From sequence record KP869111: DNA of 64,000 nucleotides; one strand, written 5' to 3'. The stretch is from Escherichia coli O157 typing phage 13. This document shows, one piece after another, positions 3-63,426 of the stretch. The stretch's first letter is position 1; every line of letters starts with the position of its first letter. The notes below the pieces were generated by a model, which was not told the origin of the DNA, did not search any database, and saw nothing but the letters and a program-made list of their open reading frames with translations. The translations under genes were made by a program, and so were the position numbers.

Positions 3-578
3 ATGTTGGAATCTCATGATGGAAAAGATTCTGGCTTAAAACCAGGGCTTTATATAGAAGGTATTTTTCTTCAGGCAGAGGTTGTTAACCGAAATAAACG
101 TTTATATCCTAAACGTGTTTTGGAAAAAGCCGTAAGCGACTATATTAAAGAACAAGTCGCAACCAAACAAGCCCTTGGAGAATTAAATCATCCACCTCGT
201 GCAAATGTTGACCCTATGCAAGCCGCTATCATTATTGAAGATATGTGGTGGAAAGGAAACGATGTATATGGACGTGCTAGAATTATTGAAGGCGACCATG
301 GTCCCGGCGATAAATTAGCTGCTAATATACGAGCTGGTTGGATTCCAGGTGTTTCCTCTCGTGGTCTTGGTTCTTTAACCGACACCAATAAAGGGTACCG
401 TATCGTGAACGAAGGATTTAAATTAACCGTCGGTGTAGATGCCGTATGGGGTCCTTCTGCTCCAGATGCTTGGGTTACTCCTAAACAAATATCAGAATCA
501 GAAAATTCGGTGGAAATCACCAAAAACAGTGCTGATGAAGCATTTAAAGCTCTCGCAGAGAGTTTAAAAGCATTATAA
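3..578 (+). CDS. 21: prohead core protease gp21 (5-prime partial, starts outside window)
   Basis: ORF open from window edge; translation matches T4 gp21 C-terminal region; followed by genes 22 and 23 in T4 order. Confidence 0.9.
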   Translation: MLESHDGKDSGLKPGLYIEGIFLQAEVVNRNKRLYPKRVLEKAVSDYIKEQVATKQALGELNHPPRANVDPMQAAIIIEDMWWKGNDVYGRARIIEGDHGPGDKLAANIRAGWIPGVSSRGLGSLTDTNKGYRIVNEGFKLTVGVDAVWGPSAPDAWVTPKQISESENSVEITKNSADEAFKALAESLKAL

Positions 579-581
579 ATA
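574..581 (+). promoter_or_regulatory. T4-type late promoter (TATAAATA) for gene 22
   Basis: exact TATAAATA about 30 nt upstream of gene 22 start codon. Confidence 0.55.
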
Positions 582-611
582 ATAATGTAATCTAAACCAC
601 AGGACACTAAA

Positions 612-1424
612 ATGATCAAAGAACAACTTTTGAAAGAAGCTCAGAACATCGAGACTTCAGTTGCTCTTAATAGTGTTTTCGAATCAGTAGAACTGTCTCC
701 GGACGTTAAAGCTAATTTCAGCACTGTATTCGAAGCCACCGTTAAGCAGGAAGCAGTCAAACTGGCTGAATCTCATATCAAAGCCATCGCCGAAAAGGCC
801 GAAGAAGAAGTTGAAAAGGCTAAAGAAGATGCTGAAGAGAAAGCTGATAAAAAATTGGCTGAACAAGCTTCTAAATTCCTAGACCATCTTGCAAAAGAAT
901 GGCTCGCAGAAAACCAAATCGCAGTTGATAAAGGCATTAAAGCTGATTTGTTCGAATCCATGCTTGGTGGTCTGAAAGAACTGTTTGTTGAACATAACGT
1001 TGTTGTTCCAGAAGAATCTGTAGATGTTGTAGCAGAAATGGAAGAAGAGCTGGCCGAACATAAAGAAGAAACCGCTCGTTTGTTCGAAGAAGTTACCAAA
1101 CGTGATGCATATATCAATTACGTTCAGCGTGAAACCGCTATTAATGAAAGCGTGAAAGACCTGACTGAATCTCAGAAAGAAAAAGTTATTGGCCTGGTTG
1201 AAGGTATGGATTATTCTGACGCATTTGGTACTAAGTTAACTGCTATTGTAGAAATGGTTAAAGGTTCTACTAAAGAAGAAGCCGCTATTACCGAAAGTAT
1301 AAATACAGTTGACAATGACGCTGCCGGTCTTAATTTTGTTGCCGAAGCAGTTGACACTACCACAACTCAGGTAGAACAGAATTCTAATGTAAGTTTATAT
1401 GCGAAAGTCGCATCTCGTTTCTAA
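612..1424 (+). CDS. 22: prohead core scaffold protein gp22
   Basis: 270 aa acidic Glu/Lys-rich coiled-coil protein; position between 21 and 23; matches T4 gp22 in length and sequence. Confidence 0.9.
   Translation: MIKEQLLKEAQNIETSVALNSVFESVELSPDVKANFSTVFEATVKQEAVKLAESHIKAIAEKAEEEVEKAKEDAEEKADKKLAEQASKFLDHLAKEWLAENQIAVDKGIKADLFESMLGGLKELFVEHNVVVPEESVDVVAEMEEELAEHKEETARLFEEVTKRDAYINYVQRETAINESVKDLTESQKEKVIGLVEGMDYSDAFGTKLTAIVEMVKGSTKEEAAITESINTVDNDAAGLNFVAEAVDTTTTQVEQNSNVSLYAKVASRF
1298..1305 (+). promoter_or_regulatory. possible late promoter (TATAAATA) inside gene 22, upstream of gene 23
   Basis: exact TATAAATA motif; distance to gene 23 start about 137 nt so assignment uncertain. Confidence 0.3.
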
Positions 1425-1441
1425 TTTAAAGGTTAACACAA

Positions 1442-3004
1442 ATGACTACTATCAAAACTAAAGCTCAGCTCGTAGACAAATGGAAAGAACTGCTGGAAGG
1501 TGAAGGCCTGCCGGAAATCGCTAATAGCAAGCAGGCTATTATCGCTAAAATCTTCGAAAACCAGGAAAAAGATTTCGAAGTATCCCCTGAATATAAAGAC
1601 GAGAAAATCGCTCAGGCATTTGGTTCTTTCTTGACCGAAGCTGAAATTGGTGGTGACCATGGTTATAATGCTCAGAACATCGCAGCAGGTCAAACCTCTG
1701 GTGCAGTAACCCAAATTGGGCCAGCAGTTATGGGTATGGTTCGTCGTGCTATTCCTAATCTGATCGCTTTTGATATTTGTGGTGTTCAGCCTATGAACAG
1801 CCCTACCGGTCAGGTATTTGCTCTCCGTGCAGTATATGGTAAAGACCCTATCGCTGCTGACGCTAAAGAAGCTTTCCATCCGATGTATGCTCCAGATGCG
1901 ATGTTCTCTGGTCAGGGTGCTGCTAAGAAATTCCCAGCTCTGGCTGCTAGCACACAAACCACAGTAGGTGATATCTATACTCACTTCTTCCAGGAAACTG
2001 GTACTGTATATCTGCAAGCTTCTGTTCAAGTAACAATCGATGCGACCGATGCTGCTAAATTAGATGCCGAAGTTAAGAAACAAATGGAAGCTGGTGCACT
2101 GGTAGAAATCGCTGAAGGTATGGCTACTTCTATCGCTGAACTCCAGGAAGGTTTCAACGGTTCTACCGATAACCCATGGAATGAAATGGGCTTCCGTATC
2201 GATAAACAAGTTATTGAAGCTAAATCTCGCCAGCTGAAAGCTGCTTACTCTATCGAATTAGCACAAGACCTCCGTGCAGTACACGGTATGGATGCTGATG
2301 CTGAACTGAGCGGTATTCTGGCTACAGAAATTATGCTAGAAATCAACCGTGAAGTTGTTGATTGGATTAACTACTCAGCACAGGTTGGTAAATCTGGTAT
2401 GACCCTGACTCCGGGTTCTAAAGCTGGTGTATTTGACTTCCAGGACCCGATTGATATCCGTGGTGCTCGTTGGGCCGGTGAAAGCTTTAAATCTCTGTTG
2501 TTCCAGATTGATAAAGAAGCAGTTGAAATTGCTCGTCAAACCGGTCGTGGTGAAGGTAACTTCATTATCGCTTCCCGTAACGTAGTTAACGTACTGGCTT
2601 CAGTTGATACTGGTATTTCTTACGCTGCACAGGGTCTGGCTTCCGGTTTTAATACCGACACTACTAAGTCTGTATTTGCCGGTGTACTTGGTGGTAAATA
2701 CCGCGTATACATCGACCAGTATGCTAAACAGGATTATTTCACCGTTGGTTACAAAGGCGCTAACGAAATGGATGCAGGTATTTACTATGCTCCTTACGTT
2801 GCACTTACCCCACTGCGTGGTTCTGATCCTAAGAACTTCCAGCCGGTAATGGGCTTTAAAACTCGTTACGGTATCGGTGTTAACCCGTTTGCTGAAAGTT
2901 CCCTGCAGGCTCCAGGTGCTCGCATCCAGTCCGGTATGCCATCTATCCTGAACAGCCTTGGTAAGAACGCTTACTTCCGCCGTGTATATGTAAAAGGCAT
3001 CTAA
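1442..3004 (+). CDS. 23: major capsid protein gp23
   Basis: 520 aa; near-identical to T4 gp23 over its length (T4 is 521 aa). Confidence 0.97.
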   Translation: MTTIKTKAQLVDKWKELLEGEGLPEIANSKQAIIAKIFENQEKDFEVSPEYKDEKIAQAFGSFLTEAEIGGDHGYNAQNIAAGQTSGAVTQIGPAVMGMVRRAIPNLIAFDICGVQPMNSPTGQVFALRAVYGKDPIAADAKEAFHPMYAPDAMFSGQGAAKKFPALAASTQTTVGDIYTHFFQETGTVYLQASVQVTIDATDAAKLDAEVKKQMEAGALVEIAEGMATSIAELQEGFNGSTDNPWNEMGFRIDKQVIEAKSRQLKAAYSIELAQDLRAVHGMDADAELSGILATEIMLEINREVVDWINYSAQVGKSGMTLTPGSKAGVFDFQDPIDIRGARWAGESFKSLLFQIDKEAVEIARQTGRGEGNFIIASRNVVNVLASVDTGISYAAQGLASGFNTDTTKSVFAGVLGGKYRVYIDQYAKQDYFTVGYKGANEMDAGIYYAPYVALTPLRGSDPKNFQPVMGFKTRYGIGVNPFAESSLQAPGARIQSGMPSILNSLGKNAYFRRVYVKGI

Positions 3005-3028
3005 TCTTAATTGATTAAATCTTATTTT

Positions 3029-3046
3029 GGGAGACTTCGGTCTCCC
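3029..3046. terminator. GGGAGACTTCGGTCTCCC hairpin (UUCG tetraloop) plus T-run after gene 23
   Basis: perfect 7-bp stem with TTCG loop followed by ATTTTTGGTTTT. Confidence 0.7.
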
Positions 3047-3056
3047 ATTTTTGGTT

Positions 3057-3326
3057 TTATTTCTGTGCAATTTTGATGTAAGTTTTCAAAATATTTTGCC
3101 AATTAGGCATACCTTCTTGGACATATGCCGGAGAACCATCTTTGTTTTTGAATGATGCAAGTTTATCAGTGGCCCAATAACCTTTAGCTCGAGCTTCAGA
3201 ATCAACTTTCATCCATACTTTGTTGAAGGCATTACCATTAACTTTTGCACCATATTTTTCTACTAACTTAACTGCTTCAGCTTCCAGAACTTTTAAAGTA
3301 TCTCGTAAGAAACGTGCTTTAGTCAT
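3057..3326 (-). CDS. hypothetical early protein, antisense to capsid genes (position of segD in T4)
   Basis: 89 aa ORF with Shine-Dalgarno GAGGAG and upstream early-type promoter; no nuclease motifs. Confidence 0.5.
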   Translation of the reverse strand: MTKARFLRDTLKVLEAEAVKLVEKYGAKVNGNAFNKVWMKVDSEARAKGYWATDKLASFKNKDGSPAYVQEGMPNWQNILKTYIKIAQK

Positions 3327-3352
3327 TTTGTTTACTCCTCTGTAGTTGATAA

Positions 3353-3386
3353 GTCTATAGTATCACATACCAAATACGTTGTAAAC
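3353..3386 (-). promoter_or_regulatory. early-type promoter (GTTTAC -35 box, TACTAT-like -10)
   Basis: GTTTAC on minus strand, 17-nt spacer, A/T-rich -10; same architecture recurs at more than 15 sites. Confidence 0.55.
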
Positions 3387-3392
3387 AATCTT

Positions 3393-3400
3393 TATAAATA
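3393..3400 (+). promoter_or_regulatory. late promoter (TATAAATA) for gene 24
   Basis: exact TATAAATA 28 nt upstream of gene 24 ATG. Confidence 0.55.
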
Positions 3401-3427
3401 ATCTATATCACATAAGGAAAAAATGCA

Positions 3428-4711
3428 ATGAGTAAAATCCAAAAATTATTGCGTGAATCTACAACGTCTACTAGCAACTCAATTGGTCGCCCAAATCTCG
3501 TTGCTTTGACTCGCGCTACGACTAAATTAATATATTCTGACATTGTAGCAACACAAAGAACTAATCAACCTGTTGCTGCTTTTTATGGTATCAAATATCT
3601 TAACCCAGATAACGAATTCACATTTAAAACCGGTGCTACTTATGCTGGCGAAGTTGGATATGTAGACCGAGAAAAAATTACTGAACTCACAGAAGAATCA
3701 AAAGTCACACTAAATAAAGGTGATTTTTTCAAATATAATAATATCGTCTATAAAGTGTTAGAAGATACACCATTTGCAGATATTCAAGAAAGTGATCTAG
3801 AATTAGCTCTTCAGATTGCAGTCGTTCATTTAAAGGTACGGTTATTTTCAGATGCAGCGGTAACAAGCAAATTTGAAAGCTCTGATAGCGAAATTTCTGA
3901 TGCAAGATTCCAGATTAATAAATGGCAAACTTCAGTCAAATCTCGCAAACTTAAAACTGGTCTCACGGTTGAATTAGCGCAAGATTTGGAAGCGAATGGA
4001 TTTGATGCCCCTAACTTCTTAGAGGATTTGCTTGCTACTGAAATGGCTGATGAAATTAATAAAGATATTCTTCAGTCTTTAATTACTGTATCGAAACGTT
4101 ATAAAGTTACTGGAATTACTGACACCGGATTTATTGACTTGAGCTATGCATCCGCTCCAGAAGCAGGTCGTTCATTATATCGAATGGTGTGTGAAATGGT
4201 ATCACACATTCAAAAAGAGACAACTTATACTGCAACGTTTTGTGTAGCCTCAGCTCGTGCAGCTGCTATTCTTGCTGCTTCCGGTTGGTTAAAACATAAG
4301 CCAGAAGATGACAAGTATCTTTCACAAAATGCTTATGGATTCTTGGCAAATGGATTACCTCTTTACTGCGATACCAACAGTCCGTTAGATTATGTTATTG
4401 TTGGTGTTGTAGAAAATATCGGCGAAAAAGAAATTGTAGGGTCCATCTTTTATGCTCCATACACTGAAGGAGTAGATTTAGATGACCCGGAACATGTTGG
4501 TGCATTTAAAGTTGTAGTTGATCCAGAAAGCTTGCAACCGTCTATCGGATTATTGGTTAGATATGCTTTATCAGCAAATCCTTACACAGTAGCAAAAGAC
4601 GAAAAAGAAGCGAGAATAATTGATGGTGGGGACATGGATAAAATGGCAGGACGTTCAGACTTGTCTGTTTTACTCGGTGTTAAATTGCCTAAAATTATTA
4701 TAGATGAATAA
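3428..4711 (+). CDS. 24: capsid vertex protein gp24
   Basis: 427 aa, same length as T4 gp24; gp23 paralogue downstream of 23. Confidence 0.95.
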   Translation: MSKIQKLLRESTTSTSNSIGRPNLVALTRATTKLIYSDIVATQRTNQPVAAFYGIKYLNPDNEFTFKTGATYAGEVGYVDREKITELTEESKVTLNKGDFFKYNNIVYKVLEDTPFADIQESDLELALQIAVVHLKVRLFSDAAVTSKFESSDSEISDARFQINKWQTSVKSRKLKTGLTVELAQDLEANGFDAPNFLEDLLATEMADEINKDILQSLITVSKRYKVTGITDTGFIDLSYASAPEAGRSLYRMVCEMVSHIQKETTYTATFCVASARAAAILAASGWLKHKPEDDKYLSQNAYGFLANGLPLYCDTNSPLDYVIVGVVENIGEKEIVGSIFYAPYTEGVDLDDPEHVGAFKVVVDPESLQPSIGLLVRYALSANPYTVAKDEKEARIIDGGDMDKMAGRSDLSVLLGVKLPKIIIDE

Positions 4712-4722
4712 ACAAAAAAAAA

Positions 4723-4738
4723 GGGACCTTACGGTCCC
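4723..4738. terminator. bidirectional hairpin GGGACCTTACGGTCCC between gene 24 and rnlB
   Basis: stem-loop flanked by A-run and T-run between convergent genes. Confidence 0.65.
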
Positions 4739-4745
4739 TTTTTCG

Positions 4746-5744
4746 TTATGATACTAATTCAATCCATGCAGGACGCAGAACATCTTGCACCATTCGGACT
4801 AATTCTTTCTTAACAAGATTCGGATTATCGGATGATGTTAATACAATACCTTCACGAGAAGTTTCTTCCAGAATATCTTGAACAGTCAATCCCATCACTT
4901 TGCCAAAATCTTTTGGCGTTACAGTCCCAATCTTAGAAATCACATTATTAACACGGTTTAATGTAACATAACAAGCTAGGACATCAAGCAAGTTTTTGTC
5001 AATTTCGGTTAATGGAACCTGAGTTTTAATAGGCTTATCAGACTTTTTCTTTTCACTGAATTTAGAGTTCTTACACTTAATAGCTACACGAGTACCGTTT
5101 GGCAGCCATTTAGGGAAACAAGGCTTCAGAACATAACCTTCTGCTGTATTATCACCAATAACATTAGCATCAAATACGCAATTATTTGCTTCGACAAGGT
5201 CTTCTGACGCAGTAGCATTATAAGCGGCTAAGACGGAATCAAGGTCGTTTGGAATCATGATAAGAGCATCAAATGTGCCACGACCAAGCATTGGTGCCAT
5301 TTTAAAACCGAATTCATTACAGAAATCTTGCATTTCGTAATCAGTCAAATACGTATTATCACCACTTTCTGTATTGATAATGATATCGAACACATAAAAA
5401 TCTTTTTCACCGTAGTCAACACCTTTCTGGATTCCACCACCAGCGAATTCACCGAATACTTGATATGATACGGCTCGAGCTGTGTACATGAATTCCTGAA
5501 CGGCTTTAATAGCTTTATCATACTTCTTGAGTACGATTTCATAACCATAAAAATCTTCTGCTGGAAGAATAGGGCCTGTGCGCTTGGCGCATGTGACGTT
5601 GTCACGTTCAATAATTAAACTAAAGTTGGTCCCATGGATTTTCTCACGTGCTACCCAAACACCAGTAGTCAAACCATTAGTGTAGAGTTTTTCAATAAAC
5701 TTAGAGTTGTAGTGGTTTTCAAGACTGCTGTATTTCTTAAACAT
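4746..5744 (-). CDS. rnlB: RNA ligase 2 (Rnl2)
   Basis: 332 aa; KIHGTN nucleotidyltransferase lysine motif near N-terminus; T4 position after gene 24. Confidence 0.9.
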
Positions 5745-5835
5745 AAATCACCATTATAAATAATAATATCAAAATAATTAGCAGAGACTCTGTCTCCGAC
5801 CCGATGTTTAATTTGAATGGATAGAACCTAGATTC

Positions 5836-24750: not shown

Positions 24751-24884
24751 NNNNNNNNNNNNNNNNNNNNNNNNNNNNNNNNNNNNNNNNNNNNNNNNNN
24801 NNNNNNNNNNNNNNNNNNNNNNNNNNNNNNNNNNNNNNNNNNNNNNNNNNNNNNNNNNNNNNNNNNNNCGTCCTTGGATGTAAA

Positions 24885-40912: not shown

Positions 40913-40951
40913 GATAGGACTACTATAACATAGCCCTATCTTGTTATAAAC
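40913..40951 (-). promoter_or_regulatory. early promoter cassette with near-palindromic 28-mer (PeSL-like)
   Basis: GTTTAT -35, TATAGT -10; 28-mer at 40913-40940 is the exact reverse complement of 45597-45624. Confidence 0.55.
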
Positions 40952-44737: not shown

Positions 44738-45383
44738 ATGGCCGACATCAAACGTAAGTTCAGAGCCGAAGACGGTCTGGACGCCGGTGGCGACAAGATT
44801 GTTAACGTAGCATTAGCCGACCGTACAGTAGGTACTGATGGCGTAAACGTTGACTTCCTGGTACAAGAAAACACCGTTCAAGTATATGATTCTACGCGTG
44901 GATATAACAAAGGATTTGTTGTTCTTTATGACAACCGTTTATATCAAGCAATAAATGATATCGTGTCTCCTTCCGGGGCATTTAACCTTTTACAATGGCG
45001 TGCAGTTCGTACCGATGCACAATGGATAACTGTCGCTTCTGGGACTTATCAACTTTCTTCAGGTGAATCTATTTCGGTTAACACTGGTGCCGGCAATGAT
45101 ATGGTTTTCACGTTGCCAAATACGCCGGTTGATGGTGATACTGTTGTTTTGGCTGATATTGGTGGAAGAACCGGGACAGTTAAAGTACAGATTAACGCGT
45201 CTGTGCAGAGTATTTTAAACTTTAGAGGTGAACAAGTTCGTACAGTTTTAATGACGCGCCCACGTTCACAACTATTGTTTGTGTTTAGTAATCGTTTGTG
45301 GCAGATGTATATTACCGATTATGGTAAAGAATCAATCACTGTTACACCTGCGACACCATATCAAGCACAAGCAAATGATTTTA
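44738..45383 (+). CDS. 34: long tail fibre proximal subunit gp34, N-terminal fragment truncated by an N-run
   Basis: first about 215 codons match the T4 gp34 N-terminus; sequence after the N-run is unrelated. Confidence 0.85.
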
Positions 45384-45483
45384 NNNNNNNNNNNNNNNNN
45401 NNNNNNNNNNNNNNNNNNNNNNNNNNNNNNNNNNNNNNNNNNNNNNNNNNNNNNNNNNNNNNNNNNNNNNNNNNNNNNNNNNN

Positions 45484-45582
45484 GCTACTATTGTTATCTC
45501 TCCGGCTGAAGAGACCGCACTGTTTAAAGCTAAGCATATTTCTGTAGCTCAGCTTAAAATTATTGCAAAAACTCTTCTGTAA
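45484..45582 (+). CDS. C-terminal fragment of an unidentified protein (5-prime part in N-run)
   Basis: open frame from the N-run to TAA, ...AKHISVAQLKIIAKTLL; not gp34. Confidence 0.25.
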   Translation, partial: ATIVISPAEETALFKAKHISVAQLKIIAKTLL

Positions 45583-45585
45583 GTA

Positions 45586-45616
45586 GTTTACATCTTGATA
45601 GGGCTATGTTATAGTA
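45586..45616 (+). promoter_or_regulatory. early promoter cassette with near-palindromic 28-mer (PeSL-like)
   Basis: GTTTACA, 18-nt spacer, TATAGT; inverted repeat GATAGGGCTAT / ATAGTAGTCCTATC. Confidence 0.55.
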
Positions 45617-45643
45617 GTCCTATCAAAACAAATAGAGTCCACA

Positions 45644-45883
45644 ATGATTTATTACGAAAGTATCGGAACCAAAGTGGTTGGTAAAACCATTACTCGTGAA
45701 AAGTTTGCAAAGATATTCGATATGCGTTATAAAAAATCTGAACACAAAGGCATCCGATTCGAAGATGCGCACTGTACAATTTGCCCTTATAATGAAGACA
45801 TAAACGGTACAATCGTTCCATTGGTAGAGGCTTCACATGATGACCTCTGGGATGAATATAATATCGCATGTCGTGAAATTTAA
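45644..45883 (+). CDS. hypothetical early protein, 79 aa
   Basis: ORF downstream of PeSL-like promoter. Confidence 0.5.
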   Translation: MIYYESIGTKVVGKTITREKFAKIFDMRYKKSEHKGIRFEDAHCTICPYNEDINGTIVPLVEASHDDLWDEYNIACREI

Positions 45884-45911
45884 GTTAATGAATTAATCCG
45901 AGGAAAATATT

Positions 45912-46903
45912 ATGATGTTAGTTATTGGTTCTCGTGCACTTCACTATCACGGTCTTATTGATTCTAGCGCTATTAAAAATAGTGATTGGGACTTTATTGC
46001 GGACCAAGGTTCTTGGAATGCATTCAAAAATCAAATGATGGGTGTATATGTTCACCAAGATAACCCTGATGTCCAAGTTTTCAAATGCTTCCATAATGGA
46101 CGCGAAACTCATTTTGAAGCATATATTGTTCCGGCAATCACTAATGTCCGTGAATTAGTCGGTGAACTCACTCCTGAAGATTTCACGTCTTCTTATGACC
46201 TTTTAAAATACGCCAAGAAAAATTTGACTAAAGACCGTTTGAACGGGTTTTACTGGGCAACTCCTGAGATATGTCTTGCAATTAAGATGTCTCATCGTTT
46301 CAAGAAAAATAATCCATTCTTTTTAAAGACTATGAACCATATTCAGTATCTTCGTGGTAAAGGTGTTACACTTAACGATGAACTTACTGAAATTATGCTG
46401 AAACGNNNNNNNNNNNNNNNNNNNNNNNNNNNNNNNNNNNNNNNNNNNNNNNNNNNNNNNNNNNNNNNNNNNNNNNNNNNNNNNNNNNNNNNNNNNNNNN
46501 NNNNNNNNNNNNNNNNNNNNNNNNNNNNNNNNNNNNNNNNNNNNNNNNNNNNNNNNNNNNNNNNNNNNNNNNNNNNNNNNNNNNNNNNNNNNNNNNNNNN
46601 NNNNNNNNNNNNNNNNNGAAGTTTGAATCACTTCCGGAAATGGTCAAATTGGCCGGTGTATATGAAGAAACATGTGTACTAGCGTTAGAACGTTCTCAGA
46701 TTCCTAATGGCTTTGAAATCCATCCTCGTGATAGTTTTATGATGGCATTAGAAAAGGTCTGTACTTCAATCACATCAGGCTGGTTCCGTGAGTATGCCTG
46801 GGAGAACTATGGCAAAGTAGTAAGTATGTATCAAAGCTTAGGACACGACGATTACGTCAAGCGTTTCAAACAAAATTTTCATATGGTAAAACCTTTCAAA
46901 TAA
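45912..46903 (+). CDS. hypothetical protein with possible nucleotidyltransferase-fold N-terminus (interrupted by N-run)
   Basis: N-terminal IGSRALHYHG...SDWDF resembles the GS...DxD pol-beta-type NTase motif; frame resumes after the 212-nt N-run. Confidence 0.45.
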
Positions 46904-46915
46904 TTTCACCAAACT

Positions 46916-46948
46916 GTTTACAAGGTCTGTAGTTGTTGATACTATAGA
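46916..46948 (+). promoter_or_regulatory. early-type promoter (GTTTAC box)
   Basis: GTTTACA, spacer, TACTATAG. Confidence 0.5.
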
Positions 46949-46961
46949 CCTATCAAAACAA

Positions 46962-47183
46962 ATGAGTGAATGGAGATACAAAATGACTACTTTGAATAAA
47001 CGTTTCGGTAAAGCTAAACCTGGCTGTGCAGCAGAACGTCGTTACATTTTCGCTCAGTTAGAAGATGTAGAGTATCAGATTAATCAAGTTCACATTACTG
47101 GCATCGAGCCTATGTGTGGCCTTGAAGCTCTTCGTGAAGTTCGTGACGGGTATCGTCGTGATATCGAAGAAATGTCAAAATAA
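46962..47183 (+). CDS. hypothetical early protein, 73 aa
   Basis: ORF downstream of early promoter. Confidence 0.45.
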   Translation: MSEWRYKMTTLNKRFGKAKPGCAAERRYIFAQLEDVEYQINQVHITGIEPMCGLEALREVRDGYRRDIEEMSK

Positions 47184-47184
47184 G

Positions 47185-47214
47185 TGTACAAACTGATAGG
47201 ACTATGTTATAGTA
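47185..47214 (+). promoter_or_regulatory. early promoter cassette (PeSL-like variant)
   Basis: GTGTAC -35 variant, TATAGT -10, inverted repeat GATAGGACTAT / ATAGTAGTCCTAT. Confidence 0.5.
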
Positions 47215-47241
47215 GTCCTATTAAAACATGAGGAGAATATT

Positions 47242-47341
47242 ATGAAATTAGGCGAAACCAACCGAATTGGTCTTTTAACAATATTTGTATCACTTTTTTA
47301 CGCAGCTCTTTCTGTTGCAGTATTACAAAAGGCTTACAGTA
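47242..47341 (+). CDS. N-terminal fragment of a putative membrane protein (runs into N-run)
   Basis: hydrophobic N-terminus MKLGETNRIGLLTIFVSLFYAALSV. Confidence 0.3.
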
Positions 47342-47441
47342 NNNNNNNNNNNNNNNNNNNNNNNNNNNNNNNNNNNNNNNNNNNNNNNNNNNNNNNNNNN
47401 NNNNNNNNNNNNNNNNNNNNNNNNNNNNNNNNNNNNNNNNN

Positions 47442-48971
47442 GAACGTGGTAATATCATGGCTGTTTATGGCGGTATTGTATATCCAATCGGAAGTGTTAT
47501 TAAAGAACAAACATGGATGATGACGCGATGCACTACAGCTTATATTAAATTCCCTATGGGTGAACTAGATGTAGCCCCGTCTCGTGAAGCATTGTCATTT
47601 GATAAACGTACAGTAGCAAATATCCATAAACGCGTTGCAGAAATCGATGCTAAATTGTTTGCTGAAGATTCTAAGAAATGGATTGATTGTAAATACCCAC
47701 GTCATGTGTTCCGTGAAATTGATTCTCTTGGCTATACCGCTCGTAAATACATGGAAAAGGCCGGGTCTAATATTGAATCACTGAAATACTCTAAAGAACA
47801 ACTAACTTATTCTGAGTTGTACAAACGTTTTAAAATGGGGCCTGAGTGGTGTAATCTTGGCGTCGTATACGATATCGTTGAATCCCCTCGTCTTCGTCGT
47901 ATTCGTGAAAGTGGTAGCTCATCATCAACCATTTCAATTAACAGCCTGATTGGCATTAACATTAAAAACGTTGAAATTGTTATTGACGACGTTAAGGGAC
48001 GCGTTCCATTAATGCGAGCTCTTAATTCAATTGAAATGTCTAAAGACGAGGTTAAATTAACTGGTAAAGTTCCACGTGGTTTTGGTAAAAGCGTACTATT
48101 CGTTGACCCTACAGACGAAGATGCAATGAAACTTCTGGAACGCCTTAAAGTTATCTTTGATGGCGACAACATTAACATGTACAAGACTTCAGAGCTTTTA
48201 CAAATCGTTAAGCCATGGATTGAAGTCAGGAAACGAACTAATGAGCCTCGTCCTAAATCCCCAAGTGCTCATCGGTTCTTTAAGAATGAAAATGATGTTT
48301 GGGTATCAGAAGATCTCTTTATTCCGGCAAGTGAAGCAGATGAAATCCAAGGTTATGCTATAGTTCGTAATCGTTCTAATGCTGAATGTCTTGACGCAGA
48401 TAAAGGTTGGTTGAATTATGATTCTAATTTCTTGACTCGTATTGCCGATTTGTCAGGTATTAAAGAGTTCACTGTAGTTCGCCCACAGATTGCTAAGAAA
48501 GTTCGTAAACTTGGTGAAGTAGAATGCTTGTTCGAAAAATCAATTAATGACTATATTACGCTAATTGATAAAGTGGATTATGATGAGTATGTATCACCAA
48601 GTCGTAGAGCACAGCCTTATTTGAATCATATTACTCGTAATGAAGAGCTTAACTTCCTTAGTAAGTATTTTAGCTCTAAGAACAAAGAAATCAGTAAAGA
48701 TTTTGCAAAACTTTCAACAGTAAATAATCGTTGGGGATGGAATCGATTCGCAGGTGCTGATAACAGAGACCTGAACAGGAAGTTAGAATTGTGTGCTAAA
48801 ATTTTCGATAAGCTTAAAGATAATGCTTACGATTATGATGATAAAATGGTTATTGAATTTGAAACCAATTATCATATTGTGTCAGAATACATGGGACGAC
48901 GTGGTACTCTTTCCAAAGAACAGGTCACTCAAATCGTTAAATTCATGAAGGCTGTGGAAGCAGCCAAATAA
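47442..48971 (+). CDS. rIIA: rIIA membrane-associated protein, C-terminal about 70 percent (5-prime part missing in N-run)
   Basis: frame open from the N-run; ...YGGIVYPIGSV...FPMGELDVAPSREALS matches the T4 rIIA mid-region; followed by rIIB. Confidence 0.85.
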   Translation, partial: ERGNIMAVYGGIVYPIGSVIKEQTWMMTRCTTAYIKFPMGELDVAPSREALSFDKRTVANIHKRVAEIDAKLFAEDSKKWIDCKYPRHVFREIDSLGYTARKYMEKAGSNIESLKYSKEQLTYSELYKRFKMGPEWCNLGVVYDIVESPRLRRIRESGSSSSTISINSLIGINIKNVEIVIDDVKGRVPLMRALNSIEMSKDEVKLTGKVPRGFGKSVLFVDPTDEDAMKLLERLKVIFDGDNINMYKTSELLQIVKPWIEVRKRTNEPRPKSPSAHRFFKNENDVWVSEDLFIPASEADEIQGYAIVRNRSNAECLDADKGWLNYDSNFLTRIADLSGIKEFTVVRPQIAKKVRKLGEVECLFEKSINDYITLIDKVDYDEYVSPSRRAQPYLNHITRNEELNFLSKYFSSKNKEISKDFAKLSTVNNRWGWNRFAGADNRDLNRKLELCAKIFDKLKDNAYDYDDKMVIEFETNYHIVSEYMGRRGTLSKEQVTQIVKFMKAVEAAK

Positions 48972-50764: not shown

Positions 50765-50795
50765 GTTTACAACTAAGTAGGACTATGATATAGTA
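50765..50795 (+). promoter_or_regulatory. early promoter cassette (PeSL-like)
   Basis: GTTTAC, spacer, TATAGT with flanking inverted repeat GTAGGACTAT / ATAGTAGTCCTAT. Confidence 0.5.
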
Positions 50796-51276: not shown

Positions 51277-51307
51277 GTTTACAACAAGGTAGGATTATGG
51301 TATAGTA
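51277..51307 (+). promoter_or_regulatory. early promoter cassette (PeSL-like)
   Basis: GTTTAC, spacer, TATAGT with inverted repeat GTAGGATTAT / ATAGTAGTCCTAC. Confidence 0.5.
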
Positions 51308-52402: not shown

Positions 52403-53811
52403 ATGCAATTGAATTCTCGTAATCTAAAAAGTATTATTGATAACGAAGCCTTAGCATATGCGATGTACACCGTTGAAAACCGTGCAATCCCAAACATGAT
52501 TGATGGATTTAAGCCGGTTCAACGTTTTGTGGTCCATCGTGCGTTAGATTTGGCTCGTGGTAATAAAGAAAAATTTCATAAACTTGCGTCAATTGCAGGC
52601 GGTGTTGCAGATTTAGGTTATCACCATGGTGAATCTTCTGCACAAGATGCAGGTGCATTGATGGCTAACACATGGAACAACAACTATCCACTGTTAGATG
52701 GCCAAGGCAACTTTGGTTCTAGAACAGTCCANNNNNNNNNNNNNNNNNNNNNNNNNNNNNNNNNNNNNNNNNNNNNNNNNNNNNNNNNNNNNNNNNNNNN
52801 NNNNNNNNNNNNNNNAAAGCTGCAGCATCTCGTTATATTTTTGCTCGTGTAAGTAAAAATTTCTATAACGTATATAAAGATACTGAATATGCTCCAGCTC
52901 ATGAAGATAAAGAACACGTTCCACCAAAATTCTATCTTCCTATTATTCCGACAGTTCTTTTGAATGGTGTATCTGGTATTGCAACCGGTTACGCAACAAA
53001 TATTCTGCCTCATAGTTTTAAATCGGTAAAAAAGGCTGTATTACAAGCTCTTCAAGGTAAAAATGTCACTAAGCCAAAAGTTGAATTCCCGGAATTCCAT
53101 GGTGAAGTACATGAAGTTGATGGGCGTTATGAGATTCACGGAACATATAAGTTCACATCTCGCACTCAAATGCAGATAACTGAAATCCCATATAAATTCG
53201 ACCGTGAAACGTATGTGAGTAAGGTTCTTGACCCGTTGGAAGACAAAGGTCTAATCTCATGGGAAGATGATTGTGGTGAACACGGCTTTGGGTTTAAGGT
53301 GAAGTTCCGTAAAGAGTACTCGCTTCCTGATGATGAAGAGCTACGTCATGAAAAAATCATGAAAGATTTTAGTCTCATCGAACGTCGTTCACAAAACATC
53401 ACAGTGATTAATGAAAAGGGTAAATTAGCAGTCTACGATAACGTAGTGGACTTAATCAAAGATTTTGTTGAAGTCCGTAAGACTTACGTTCAGAAACGTA
53501 TTGACAACAAAATCCTTGAATCTGAAAAAGCATTTAAACTGGCTTTTGCTAAGGCACACTTCATCAAAAAAGTTATCAACGGTGAAATCGTGATTCAGGG
53601 CAAGACTCGTAAAGCTTTGACTGAAGAGCTAGCACAAATCGAAATGTATAAAGAACATGTCGATAAACTGGTAGGTCTTAACATCTTCCATATCACTTCC
53701 GATGAAGCACGTAAACTAGCAGAAGAAGCTAAAGCTAAGAAAGAAGAAAATGAGTATTGGAAGTCTACTGATGTTGTGACAGAGTACACTAAAGACTTGG
53801 AGGCACTTTGA
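52403..53811 (+). CDS. 52: DNA topoisomerase II medium subunit gp52 (interrupted by N-run)
   Basis: IPNMIDGFKPVQRFV GyrA-type motif; both flanks of the N-run match T4 gp52; frame differs across the N-run. Confidence 0.9.
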
Positions 53812-58015: not shown

Positions 58016-61000
58016 TTATGCTAAACGAACGATATAGTTAAAAGCAACGTTTTTAACTGTGTTTTCTGTATTTCCTGTGGCATTTACAGTTATTGTATGT
58101 CCATGGGAACCAATTGCAACAGTATGAGAATGAGCACCAATACCTACCGAATGGGTATGAGCACCAATACCCACAGTATGAGCATGGTTACCTGTGGTAC
58201 TTGTGGTTCCTGACCAAGAGTGTGTATGGTTACCTTCTGAAGAAGTTTTGGCTATATTCGACCCTGCAGTAGCACCGTTCACGGTTCCAGTGAATTTAGC
58301 GTTGGCGTTTGCACCTACACTATTATATCCGTCATAGAATATGTTATTGGGTATGCCAGCTTGTATCTGAGGACCTGAGCGCGCATGTTGGTGGTTACCT
58401 GCAGCACTTGTAGTTCCACNNNNNNNNNNNNNNNNNNNNNNNNNNNNNNNNNNNNNNNNNNNNNNNNNNNNNNNNNNNNNNNNNNNNNNNNNNNNNNNNN
58501 NNNNNNNNNNNNNNNNNNNNNNNNNNNNNNNNNNNNNNACCGTATGGTTATGGTTACCTGTGGTATTACTGGTTTTAGTACCATAATCAAAGCTTGAAGA
58601 TGTTTTAGTACCATAATCAAAGCTTGATGTGGTTTTAGTACCTAAATCAGTATTAGATGCTGAAGCACTATGGTTATGAGACTTAATACCATCAGCTTCT
58701 GTACTTAATACATCACGCCCAGATGGTTTACCTTTAATCGTCTGACCACGCATATCGGGCAGAGTGCCGGAAGGATACACCGCAGCTAACTTAGGATACA
58801 AGCCAGTATCAAATGTTTGACCTTCCATTATGGCATAACCTTCAGGAGGTGTATCAGTAGGCCAAGGAATCGGAGCACCAATAGGATAACTTGAGACAAT
58901 ATCTGTCTTAAGGTTATTTATTGTGGTATTCAAGTTAGCAAAATTACCAGAACCGCCGGTGATATTACCATCAGTACCAATACGAACATTACCAGCGCCT
59001 AATTTACCAGGAGAGTANNNNNNNNNNNNNNNNNNNNNNNNNNNNNNNNNNNNNNNNNNNNNNNNNNNNNNNNNNNNNNNNNNNNNNNNNNNNNNNNNNN
59101 NNNNATCACCGTTTTTATTAAATTCCCAACCTAAATCCTTTATAATTGCGCCAGTAGAAACGCCGTCACCACCTTCGTGATAGTGAACTCTAAAGTTACC
59201 ACCATTAATTAAAGTACCAATAGAATAGCAACTATTATTTTGAACGTATCTTTGTTTCACAATAGGAACATAAGTGCTTGTATCTGTTCTATCAATATTC
59301 ATATAGAACGGAGCACGAACGTTTTCATTATTCTGAGAAGCAAAAGAACCGGCTCCAGCAGGTCGTGCAGTATCAGTACATTCAGCGTCGATATATGCCG
59401 ATTGTCCTAATTGCATACGGTAATTAGGAGAAATGCGACTATGACTAGTTATAACAACAAGTTTATTATCATTATCAACGGTCACCATATTACCGCCAGC
59501 ACCATCATCACCTAACGTAACAGAATGGCGCATTTGAACCATACCGTTGTTAAGAGAAACACTCAATGGGCGAAGGTTAGAAATACCACCATTTTCACCT
59601 GCATCTTTAAGTGTAGGTATAATATGCAAAGACGCTTCAGAACGACGGAAAATAGCTCCATATTCAGCATTGTAAATACGGAAAGCATCTGCGGTATTGC
59701 CGATTTTAACTTGACCGGTAATAGAACCACCGCCGGATAAAACAAGCCCGTTATCCATAGTAACTTGTCCGGATAATGTACTTAATCCATTAACTCTAAG
59801 ACTTCCATCGGTGATAATGCTCCCTCTTGCATTCAGTTGTCCATTAATTTGTGTTACAACAGGTCCCACAGTTTCTGAACCGGTTGGAGCTACGCGCTGA
59901 GAATAAAAATAATATCCCTGGCCGTCAGCTACTTCAAAAACTGTTTCACGATTACGATCGCCAGATGCGTTAAATGAATTACCCCATGCTTTAACAGTTA
60001 CATAGCTTTTATTCTGACCAGCACGAGTACCGCCTTCCCACAAAATTTGCTTAGTGCCATCAATTGTAGTAGTTGGAGCGAATGTTAGCCCAGCAGTAGA
60101 ATTATTAGCTGCTAAATATATGCCGTTATATATTGAAAGCTGCTTAACAGATGTAATACCGCCATCAGCATAAAACATTACATTATTAGAGCCAGTTACT
60201 AGTTTAAGAATACCCGGGTTAATTTCCATACCTTGTTGGGTATTGATATTCATCTGACCTGTACCACGGAAATAGTGGTTCATTTTACCACCAGCATTGT
60301 ACCCGATATGGGTTTGTCCGTCTCCAGCATTGTTATTATCAGCTTGTGTTTGAACAGACAAGAGAGCAGCATTTGTACCAGGCATAATCCATGTGGTGCC
60401 TTGGTCCTCGGAACGACCAAATATACCTTTACGAGTACTACGGAAACTGTCAGGAGTAATAGAAGCAACAGAATTCCAATTACCTACTAAATCATAAACA
60501 CCCTGCTTAATGTATTTTAAACCAGTGGCAGCATCACCCAAAGCAATATATCTTTCTCCCATTGGAGTAGGAGAGCCGTAGTTATTGGTATTTTCATCAG
60601 TGGTAATTGTGCCAATAGCAAGTGAACGACGTAATACCATTGCGCCATCATTACGAAGACCCATTAATTTAGTAGTAAGTGTATTTCCGGTCCACCAAGA
60701 AATTTCATCATTCTTACCAGTTTGAGCTGAAGCGATTTCATGGTAAATAGTTCCACCTGATTTAGCTCGAACTTTACGAAGATAGTTTATACCATTTTCT
60801 TCACCTGTTCCAGGATAAACATATTGAACTAATGACTGTGAATCATATTGTCCGAATGCTTTTGTGTCTAAAACAATGGTTTTCGTATTAACTTGTGGAG
60901 CAGAAACTATACCATTAGCGGAGTTAATATTGCCTGACGCAGAAATATTACCTGCGCGGACCTCAATACTACCAGAATCTACAATAAAATTACCATTACG

Positions 61001-62234: not shown

Positions 62235-63426
62235 TTATTCTGGTGCTTCTTTAAATTCTTGACCAAATACCTTACCAGTATCAGTTGAAGATTGAGTAGG
62301 TAATGTCATTATGTCTGGAGCACTTAAAGATTCTGAAACATAATTTACACGAATACCATTCGTACCAAACTCAGCAGGTTTTGAAACGCTTCCATTACAT
62401 GATACTTCAGTGAATATAACGTTTCTTAATCCACCTTGCCCGACTGGAGCTGTACGATAACAATAAATCGTGAACCCGTCAGCACCAGCAGGAATTTCTA
62501 CGTAGTCTTCATATATCTTCCATTCACCTGCAGCCCCATCAAAGTTTATATCCTTAAATGAAATAGGTGAAGTAGAAGGAGATTTAAAGAAACGAATAGA
62601 AAGTCGTGTCGTCCCTTGTGCTAACAAATCGGCATCGGCCATTAGTTGGAATTTCATATAAAGGAAATCTCCAGGCTTCAATTTATACCCAGCGAGAGGT
62701 GTAATAACAGATGCTGTAGGCATCCTTTTAATTTCGTTATTAGTACCTCCAATGGCAGATAAAAATGTGTCTGACGATTCATACGTACGTCTAGGGAAGC
62801 CGGTAGCACCAATATCATCGATCGTGTCGTACACAACATCAAGTGGTGTACTATAGTCGGTTGAAGTTTTCTTATTACTATACTTAATATGTTCTAGTGC
62901 TATAGCATTCTTACCAGAAATATAAAATGCAGAATAAGAAATGTCCACTATATTTAAAACTTGTTGAGCTAATGGAATAGCAGAACTCCCAGCTTTAGTA
63001 AACCATGCAAGAACTTCTGGTGGAAAGTTTGTTTTAGCGTTAGTAACAAGAGCAAATATAAAATTTGAAGCATATGTGTCCATGAAAGTAACAAATGCAC
63101 TTGACGTGGCGTCGTTTTCAGTAGAGAAATTATATGTCTTAGATTCAACTACTGCACCTGTTGTAGGATTTATTACACGAACGTTTAATCCAACGGAAAA
63201 AACCTGGGACCCAAGTGGATTATCCTGGAACTTAATATAAGCAGGAGATGTTGATNNNNNNNNNNNNNNNNNNNNNNNNNNNNNNNNNNNNNNNNNNNNN
63301 NNNNNNNNNNNNNNNNNNNNNNGGGCAAGAGCCCGCTATGCTTAATTTAAATCGTACTGAATTGCTTTCCGATAAAAATGGCGTTTGGACGTATCCTTGT
63401 CCAAACTTAGCCATAAATTTTTCCAT
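62235..63426 (-). CDS. 35: long tail fibre hinge connector gp35 (interrupted by N-run)
   Basis: N-terminus MEKFMA... and C-terminal part both match T4 gp35; frame offset across the N-run. Confidence 0.85.

Follow-up and report, generated by a model that had tools for sequence, protein, structure and literature searches.

A phage protein family with a probable nucleotidyltransferase core and recurrent small acidic neighbours, encoded behind an early-type promoter cassette in Escherichia coli O157 typing phage 13

Several described systems lie close to the locus treated here. MenT/AbiEii proteins, e.g. MenT1 (8an4), MenT3/TglT (6j7n), MenT4 (6y56) and JHP933 (4ok0), are two-lobed with a nucleotidyltransferase (NTase) core and a helical lobe, belong to bacterial toxin-antitoxin or Abi modules and have a small protein encoded just upstream; MenA1, a protein of 68 aa, is encoded beside its toxin (PMC10435456). 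ANT(2'')-Ia (4xje) and LnuA (4wh5) are antibiotic-resistance enzymes of 158-175 residues. RlaP proteins (PF10127), e.g. T4 NrdC.11, are phage-encoded pol-beta NTases that associate with RNA ligases. With respect to transcription, T4-type phages carry promoter-early stem-loop (PeSL) cassettes with the T4/PST type consensus TTTACW N17 TAYWAT (PMC4122927), which are described as mediators of modular shuffling in hyperplastic regions (PMC2839356, PMC4122927). Here we compare these systems with a locus in 64,000 nt of E. coli O157 typing phage 13 (KP869111), referred to as the window, where the piece 45484-47341 contains a gene for a 318-aa protein composed of the Pfam domains DUF7277 and DUF7275. 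The best overall explanation, which we regard as probable, is that this protein is a phage enzyme combining an NTase core with DUF7275, encoded by an early accessory gene and having a small-protein partner.

The open reading frame (ORF) starts at 45912 on the plus strand and reads MMLVIGSRALHYHG...NSDWDF, in agreement with the preliminary description, which had pointed to IGSRAL...SDWDF. In the window it is interrupted by 212 N (46406-46617). The N-terminal part (45912-46405) comprises the NTase-like core DUF7277 (G6 S7, D25 x D27, E69) and, with K125, H128, R129 and K139, the beginning of DUF7275, the C-terminal part (46618-46903, stop codon at 46901-46903) the rest of DUF7275 including GVYEETCVLALERSQIP and KVCTSITSGWFRE; both halves lie in different frames. 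The reference was the closest complete genome, that of E. coli O157 typing phage 3 (KP869101; Mosigvirus, RB69-like). It aligns to 45585-47341 by its positions 82065-83786 on the plus strand with 99.8% identity and encodes one continuous protein of 318 aa (ECTP3_00276), annotated as hypothetical, instead of the previously proposed ~330 aa. Where the window has 212 N, this near-identical genome has 177 nt, or 59 codons, for residues ~166-224. Hence the run is a wrong-sized gap inside one scaffold, 35 nt off in length and breaking the frame, and the true product is a single chain of 318 aa.

Over its full length the protein belongs to a phage family that is catalogued yet uncharacterised. It would be an enzyme of a known kind whose second domain has no match and whose likely partner is conserved. 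It matches DUF7277 with residues 2-101 (E = 1e-27, 97.1 bits, cut-off 27), DUF7275 with residues 120-305 (E = 2.5e-78, 262.7 bits, cut-off 27) and PHROG 2141 with E = 4.5e-150, entries which carry no function; a few phage records label homologues as 'putative nucleotidyltransferase'. Both profiles, DUF7277 followed by DUF7275, are matched by all 48 aligned members. There are 2,163 relatives in the protein database, and the profile of the C-terminal domain retrieves 1,508 clusters at 50% identity. Their architecture is constant, as nearly all measure 290-345 aa and have the domain begin at residue 85-130. Homologues are encoded in 733 phage records, including T4-like, rV5-like, jumbo, Pseudomonas, Acinetobacter, Aeromonas, Vibrio, Streptomyces and Gordonia phages. 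Among 185,579 bacterial and archaeal species (one genome each) only 5 loci were found, all of them on contigs of metagenome-assembled genomes (MAGs), four of 73-167 kb, and the family is therefore in effect phage-only. T4 has no gene of comparable size in the corresponding region. A profile search of T4 1-76,000 for the family yielded nothing (best E = 0.69), such that the earlier statement of no T4 counterpart holds for this scanned part. Distant homologues in Acinetobacter phage Berthold (locus L012, 3662-4615) and Vibrio phage KVP40 (L013, 3656-4417) show 30-50% identity in the C-terminal domain and a diverged N-terminal domain, which in KVP40 is shortened to ~60 residues with GS...DLD still present.

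Residue conservation was counted across a set of 145 full-length representatives, obtained by clustering at 50% identity. G6 is found in all 138 aligned sequences, S7 in 135, D25 in 142, D27 in 144 and an acidic residue (E/D) at position 69 in 142; the pattern is repeated in 83 locus-derived homologues. AlphaFold2 predicted the 318-aa protein with high confidence (pLDDT 93.3, pTM 0.87) and gave an NTase-type core, not another fold. V-I-G6-S7 runs from the last part of β1 (residues 2-5) into the first part of α1 (6-12) and corresponds to the hG[GS] turn, D25-W-D27 at the start of β2 (26-31) to Dx[DE] on the second strand. E69, the candidate for the third catalytic acidic residue, is placed within a later strand (64-73) at the position of the third carboxylate. 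As modelled, this arrangement is the canonical pol-beta layout. The distance from S to D is 17 residues here, while 13 are found in many family members and 9-13 after GS are expected in the superfamily. The 17-residue spacing thus reads as a longer, lineage-specific loop of the Mosigvirus protein, and as many members have 13 residues the concern about spacing that had kept the first assignment tentative falls away.

A Foldseek search with the model returned 5uvd (E = 1.3e-3) and MenT1 (E = 3.8e-3), both with probability 1.00 but modest scores. MenT1, MenT3, MenT4 and the DUF1814 protein JHP933 are the closest structural neighbours and share the N-terminal pol-beta motifs I and II with the 318-aa protein; ANT(2'') and LnuA score similarly. 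The near-invariant signature, the confident model and these matches together bear out the pol-beta-fold NTase suggested in the preliminary description, and we consider it very likely that the N-terminal domain has this fold. Due to the modest Foldseek scores and the lack of a sequence profile linking it to a characterised family, the domain is placed in the pol-beta superfamily at the level of fold and motif, outside of DUF1814/MenT, RlaP and CD-NTases. Neither a cGAS-like two-lobe fold nor a match to a CD-NTase profile was found, and a CD-NTase identity was rejected. RlaP proteins are similar in length (328-336 aa), begin with GS...DxD as well and occur in the same phage group, but they constitute a separate family, and an association with RNA ligases is not general for DUF7277-DUF7275 proteins. 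PADLOC and anti-defence families gave no match for the 318-aa protein, NCBIfam only a weak sub-threshold match to HisJ (17.9 bits versus a cut-off of 90.2).

DUF7275, ~200 residues in length, is the most conserved part of the protein, more so than the N-terminal domain. It is all-helical with no solved structural counterpart, and HEPN, HD-domain or other known helical partner domains of NTases were not matched. All eleven charged or histidine positions checked (K125, H128, K139, H194, D195, H198, E240, E241, E248, R249 and R281) are identical in 145 of 145 representatives. The His, Asp and Glu residues among them point to a site for a metal or a substrate. The variable Cys243 showed no correlation with the presence of the small genes described below.

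The preliminary description had listed three early promoter cassettes, and these are readily located on the plus strand as sigma-70/T4-early type elements. Cassette 1 (45586-45616) is of the PeSL type and contains TTTACA, a 17-nt spacer, TATAGT and an inverted repeat. Cassette 2 (46916-46945) has TTTACA and TACTAT and cassette 3 (47184-47214) TGTACA and TATAGT, again at a spacing of 17 nt. All three match the PeSL consensus and inverted repeat, cassette 3 being off at one position (TGTACA). The pattern GTTTACA-N14-TGTTATAGTA occurs 6 times in the window versus 0.49 expected by chance; further copies, each with 1 mismatch to the one at 45586, are found at 40921-40951 (-), 50765-50795 (+) and 51277-51307 (+). 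As in other T4-type phages the cassettes stand beside small accessory ORFs of a hyperplastic region. The sequence shows a strong early-type promoter, an inverted repeat, repetition between accessory ORFs and a junction within a shared repeat (see below), in keeping with PeSL elements. The early PeSL promoter together with the hyperplastic location would make the 318-aa gene an early, accessory and shuffled gene.

ORFs were called and clustered in 85 homologous loci, which a 70% identity level groups into 29 lineages. Only the small acidic proteins of PHROG 899 are common to at least half of the lineages. They comprise 60-110 aa with a YG.G.TYYP.G motif and an invariant C-terminus G-x-W-x-S-S-S-x-x-C, and a Pfam search with them gave no match. 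Using a regular expression for the C-terminus, at least one copy was detected in 78 of the 85 loci, with 1-4 tandem copies per locus and in phages only distantly related to each other. The gene orientation is strikingly uniform: 149 of 153 copies lie on the same strand as the DUF7275 gene, all 149 end at most 2.8 kb upstream of it, and the nearest copy ends 14-1622 bp upstream (median gap 584 bp). A reverse look-up starting from three small proteins led to a DUF7275 gene just downstream in 3/3 cases, and 3/4 independent MAG loci with upstream DNA contain a small-protein gene. In typing phage 3 three tandem copies (KP869101 81267-81572, 81582-81854 and 81864-82061; in locus L001 of this genome 3203-3508, 3518-3790 and 3800-3997) end right at the promoter cassette, in a segment missing from the window; single examples from other phages are L007 7076-7318 and L098 5001-5270. 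The loci of Berthold and KVP40 both are devoid of small partner genes, and none was found in T4 1-76 kb. T4 Tk.1 (62 aa; tk.1, L101 10346-10534) resembles the N-terminal helix and YG..ETYY of the small proteins (E = 1.7e-5) without the Cys-terminal tail, and T4 gp49.3 ends with ...EVSSWWCEK.

Other neighbours recur within lineages only, as seen for metallophosphatase, SIR2, Macro, Rnl1/Pnkp and tRNA genes. A metallophosphatase (6/29 lineages) and a cluster of proteins with a median of 577 aa (8 lineages) were considered as general partners and dismissed for occurring in too few lineages. A general linkage to tRNAs was rejected likewise, as tRNA genes within 8 kb are present in 31/85 loci only and mostly reflect T4-like synteny. 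One jumbo-phage lineage encodes RNA ligase 1 and polynucleotide kinase-phosphatase 4-6 kb upstream of the gene (L007 1590-4367, L094 1-2328). In another lineage a Macro-domain gene overlaps the stop codon of the enzyme gene (L096 6388-6861), and in 150-kb phages SIR2 genes recur 2-3 kb downstream (L010 11015-11830, L098 8806-9606).

Based on this analysis we propose the following mechanism. The N-terminal ~105 residues (DUF7277) would form a pol-beta-superfamily NTase core, in which D25, D27 and E69 hold divalent metals while the G6-S7 turn contacts the phosphates of a nucleoside triphosphate (NTP). The enzyme would then transfer the nucleoside monophosphate (NMP) from the NTP onto a hydroxyl of its substrate in a metal-dependent manner. 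DUF7275, the ~200 C-terminal residues, most likely would serve in substrate binding and perhaps harbours a second catalytic site. Transcription would proceed from the T4-type early PeSL cassette in the hyperplastic region, and the small acidic proteins encoded upstream may represent substrate or regulator of the enzyme. The residue pattern argues for a catalytically active protein, which we think is likely, while the chances of a functional link between enzyme and small proteins, as judged from gene neighbourhood, seem about even. As to the candidate role in host takeover or anti-defence put forward in the preliminary description, only the early-type promoters and the phage restriction of the family bear on it.

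Several findings weigh against this proposal. The clustering of D25, D27 and E69 in space is inferred. At the sequence level Pfam at E <= 10 shows DUF7277 and DUF7275 only, a profile search of PDB sequences was empty apart from a chance match to PsaB (E = 1.1), and hhalign against T4 NrdC.11/RlaP (PF10127) reached a probability of 0.13. The latter, together with no PF10127 match at E <= 10, also led us to reject an RlaP identity. Moreover, genes for small acidic proteins are absent from the whole window, ~8% of the loci do not contain them, and the conserved neighbourhood could result from cassette co-transfer instead of a functional link.

The closest structural neighbours being the tRNA-modifying toxins MenT1, MenT3 and MenT4 as well as JHP933, the protein might instead be a MenT/AbiEii-like RNA NTase adding nucleotides to 3' ends of tRNA or other RNA. 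We rate this as rather unlikely. The same holds for its consequence that host tRNAs would be disabled early, or tRNAs damaged by defence systems repaired or marked, with the small acidic proteins acting as antitoxins of the MenA type. The small size and toxin-adjacent gene of MenA1 (PMC10435456) fit in here, as do the location near a tRNA cluster in enterobacterial T4-like phages and the proximity to Rnl1/Pnkp. However, the latter is limited to a single lineage and the tRNA proximity to the minority of loci mentioned above, ANT(2'') and LnuA score about equally to the MenT proteins, and the DUF1814 profile (PF08843) with its C-terminal motifs III and IV is not matched even at E <= 10, for which reason membership in this family was rejected. 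The helical lobe of the 318-aa protein is twice as large as that of MenT/AbiEii proteins, unrelated to it in the fold search and equipped with its own invariant H/D/E/K/R set. Whereas MenT/AbiEii proteins are bacterial, the DUF7277-DUF7275 family is phage-encoded and phage-restricted, and its upstream proteins are 1-4 paralogues ending in an invariant W-x-S-S-S-x-x-C.

Returning to the small proteins as substrates of the proposed phage enzyme, it appears quite unlikely that they are nucleotidylated on serine. A small-molecule O-nucleotidylyltransferase of the ANT(2'')/Lnu type, which would attach NMP to inactivate or make a metabolite, e.g. a host signalling or toxic molecule, is very unlikely in our view. 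ANT and Lnu enzymes are small as well, with an NTase core followed by helices, and enzymes of NAD/ADP-ribose metabolism (SIR2, Macro, NAMPT) adjoin the gene in some lineages. Against this, the extremely conserved C-terminal domain of 200 residues is far larger than the helical lobes of ANT/Lnu and unmatched to them. The 318-aa protein also differs from ANT(2'')-Ia and LnuA by no sequence similarity and its phage setting, PADLOC and anti-defence families are unmatched, and no conserved metabolic partner emerges, the small-protein family being the only one in at least 9/29 lineages.

A special form of the enzyme-partner proposal would be a phage-specific protein-modification module, for which we see slim chances. 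The enzyme would nucleotidylate a serine in the W-x-S-S-S-x-x-C tail and the His/Asp/Glu site of DUF7275 might process the product, e.g. in the way lanthionines form, with the terminal cysteine attacking after an elimination. If true, the small proteins would be multi-copy, enzyme-matured effectors. We know of no pol-beta NTase acting as such a module in phages. Finally, it is hardly probable that the NTase likeness is a fold coincidence or dead relic in a protein that only binds, e.g. as scaffold or inhibitor, which would agree with the failure of every sequence-profile comparison with known NTases and with the non-NTase domain being the most conserved part, but a dead site does not explain the invariance of the acidic triad, as G-S, D-x-D and E/D are retained in ~95-99% of representatives otherwise down to ~40% identical.

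The remaining ORFs of the piece are all encoded on the plus strand. Behind the three cassettes, four ORFs rather than three are counted. Cassette 1 would drive both a 79-aa ORF and the 318-aa ORF, cassette 2 a 66-aa ORF and cassette 3 a 101-aa ORF cut at 47341. The 79-aa ORF (45644-45883; PHROG 3723, no Pfam match) contains H-C-x-x-C and another Cys close to the C-terminus, by which its product is possibly metal-binding, and is conserved beside the enzyme gene in close relatives only. The 66-aa ORF (46983-47183) belongs to PHROG 6200. Only the first 33 codons of the 101-aa ORF (47242-47341; PHROG 9798; a membrane-protein PHROG is matched weakly) precede the N-run. The piece 45484-47341 contains no tRNA genes and no Rfam matches.

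It was originally described as an island bounded by two runs of 100 N. The runs do exist, at 45384-45483 and 47342-47441, whereas the island does not: flanks and piece map far apart in KP869101. The left flank, with rnh followed by gene 34 for the proximal subunit of the long tail fibre (truncated after its first ~215 codons, 44738-45383), corresponds to 383-5766 on the minus strand. The right flank, where rIIA begins mid-gene (47442-48971) and rIIB follows, corresponds to 149951-155240 on the plus strand. These positions are ~80 kb (left) and ~68 kb (right) distant from those of the piece itself. Since the three segments map to such distant places, the exact 100-N runs are arbitrary joins between contigs, the first between the cut gene 34 and the 3' end of ipI, the second in front of the middle of rIIA (KP869101 149951 onward). 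The window therefore is a concatenation of contigs in non-native order, and the apparent island is an assembly artefact: in this draft, which has gaps and a wrong order, a small scaffold sits between contigs unrelated to it. In practice, gene context across exact 100-N runs is not interpretable. By analogy with the 212-N run, the lengths of five further runs of odd length (67-119 N) in the window (24751-24868, 52732-52815, 58420-58538, 59018-59104 and 63256-63322) may misstate the missing sequence and break reading frames.

A second discontinuity is located inside the piece. The piece opens with 101 nt from the 3' end of ipI, the gene of internal head protein I, which are 100% identical to KP869101 75027-75143, with the last 32 codons and the stop codon at 45484-45582 (+; 100% to KP869101 75027-75125). 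The switch from the ipI context to that of the following ORFs falls within an exact repeat of 35 bp, GATAGGGCTATGTTATAGTAGTCCTATCAAAACAA, at 45597-45631, which is common to two promoter cassettes; in typing phage 3 a distance of 6.9 kb separates them. The skipped segment of ~6.9 kb contains tRNA-Met, tRNA-Arg and ~17 small ORFs in that phage, where the 318-aa gene lies between the ipI/tRNA genes and nudE/lysozyme/denV. A junction inside a repeat shared by two cassettes corresponds to the shuffling mode described for PeSL elements, and here reflects either a PeSL-mediated deletion in the phage or a mis-join of the short-read assembly. Typing phage 6 (KP869104, L004) shows such a junction too, though not the same one, and the gene for the 318-aa protein is absent there.

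Many of the conserved early genes found in large lytic phages have no assigned function, and the family described here is among the broader ones. With a near-invariant NTase site, a second invariant set of charged residues and a conserved partner, a domain of unknown function becomes a testable hypothesis of an enzyme and its partner. Should RNA, a metabolite or the partner proteins indeed be modified by the enzyme at an early stage of infection, this would represent a new chemistry of phage takeover or counter-defence.

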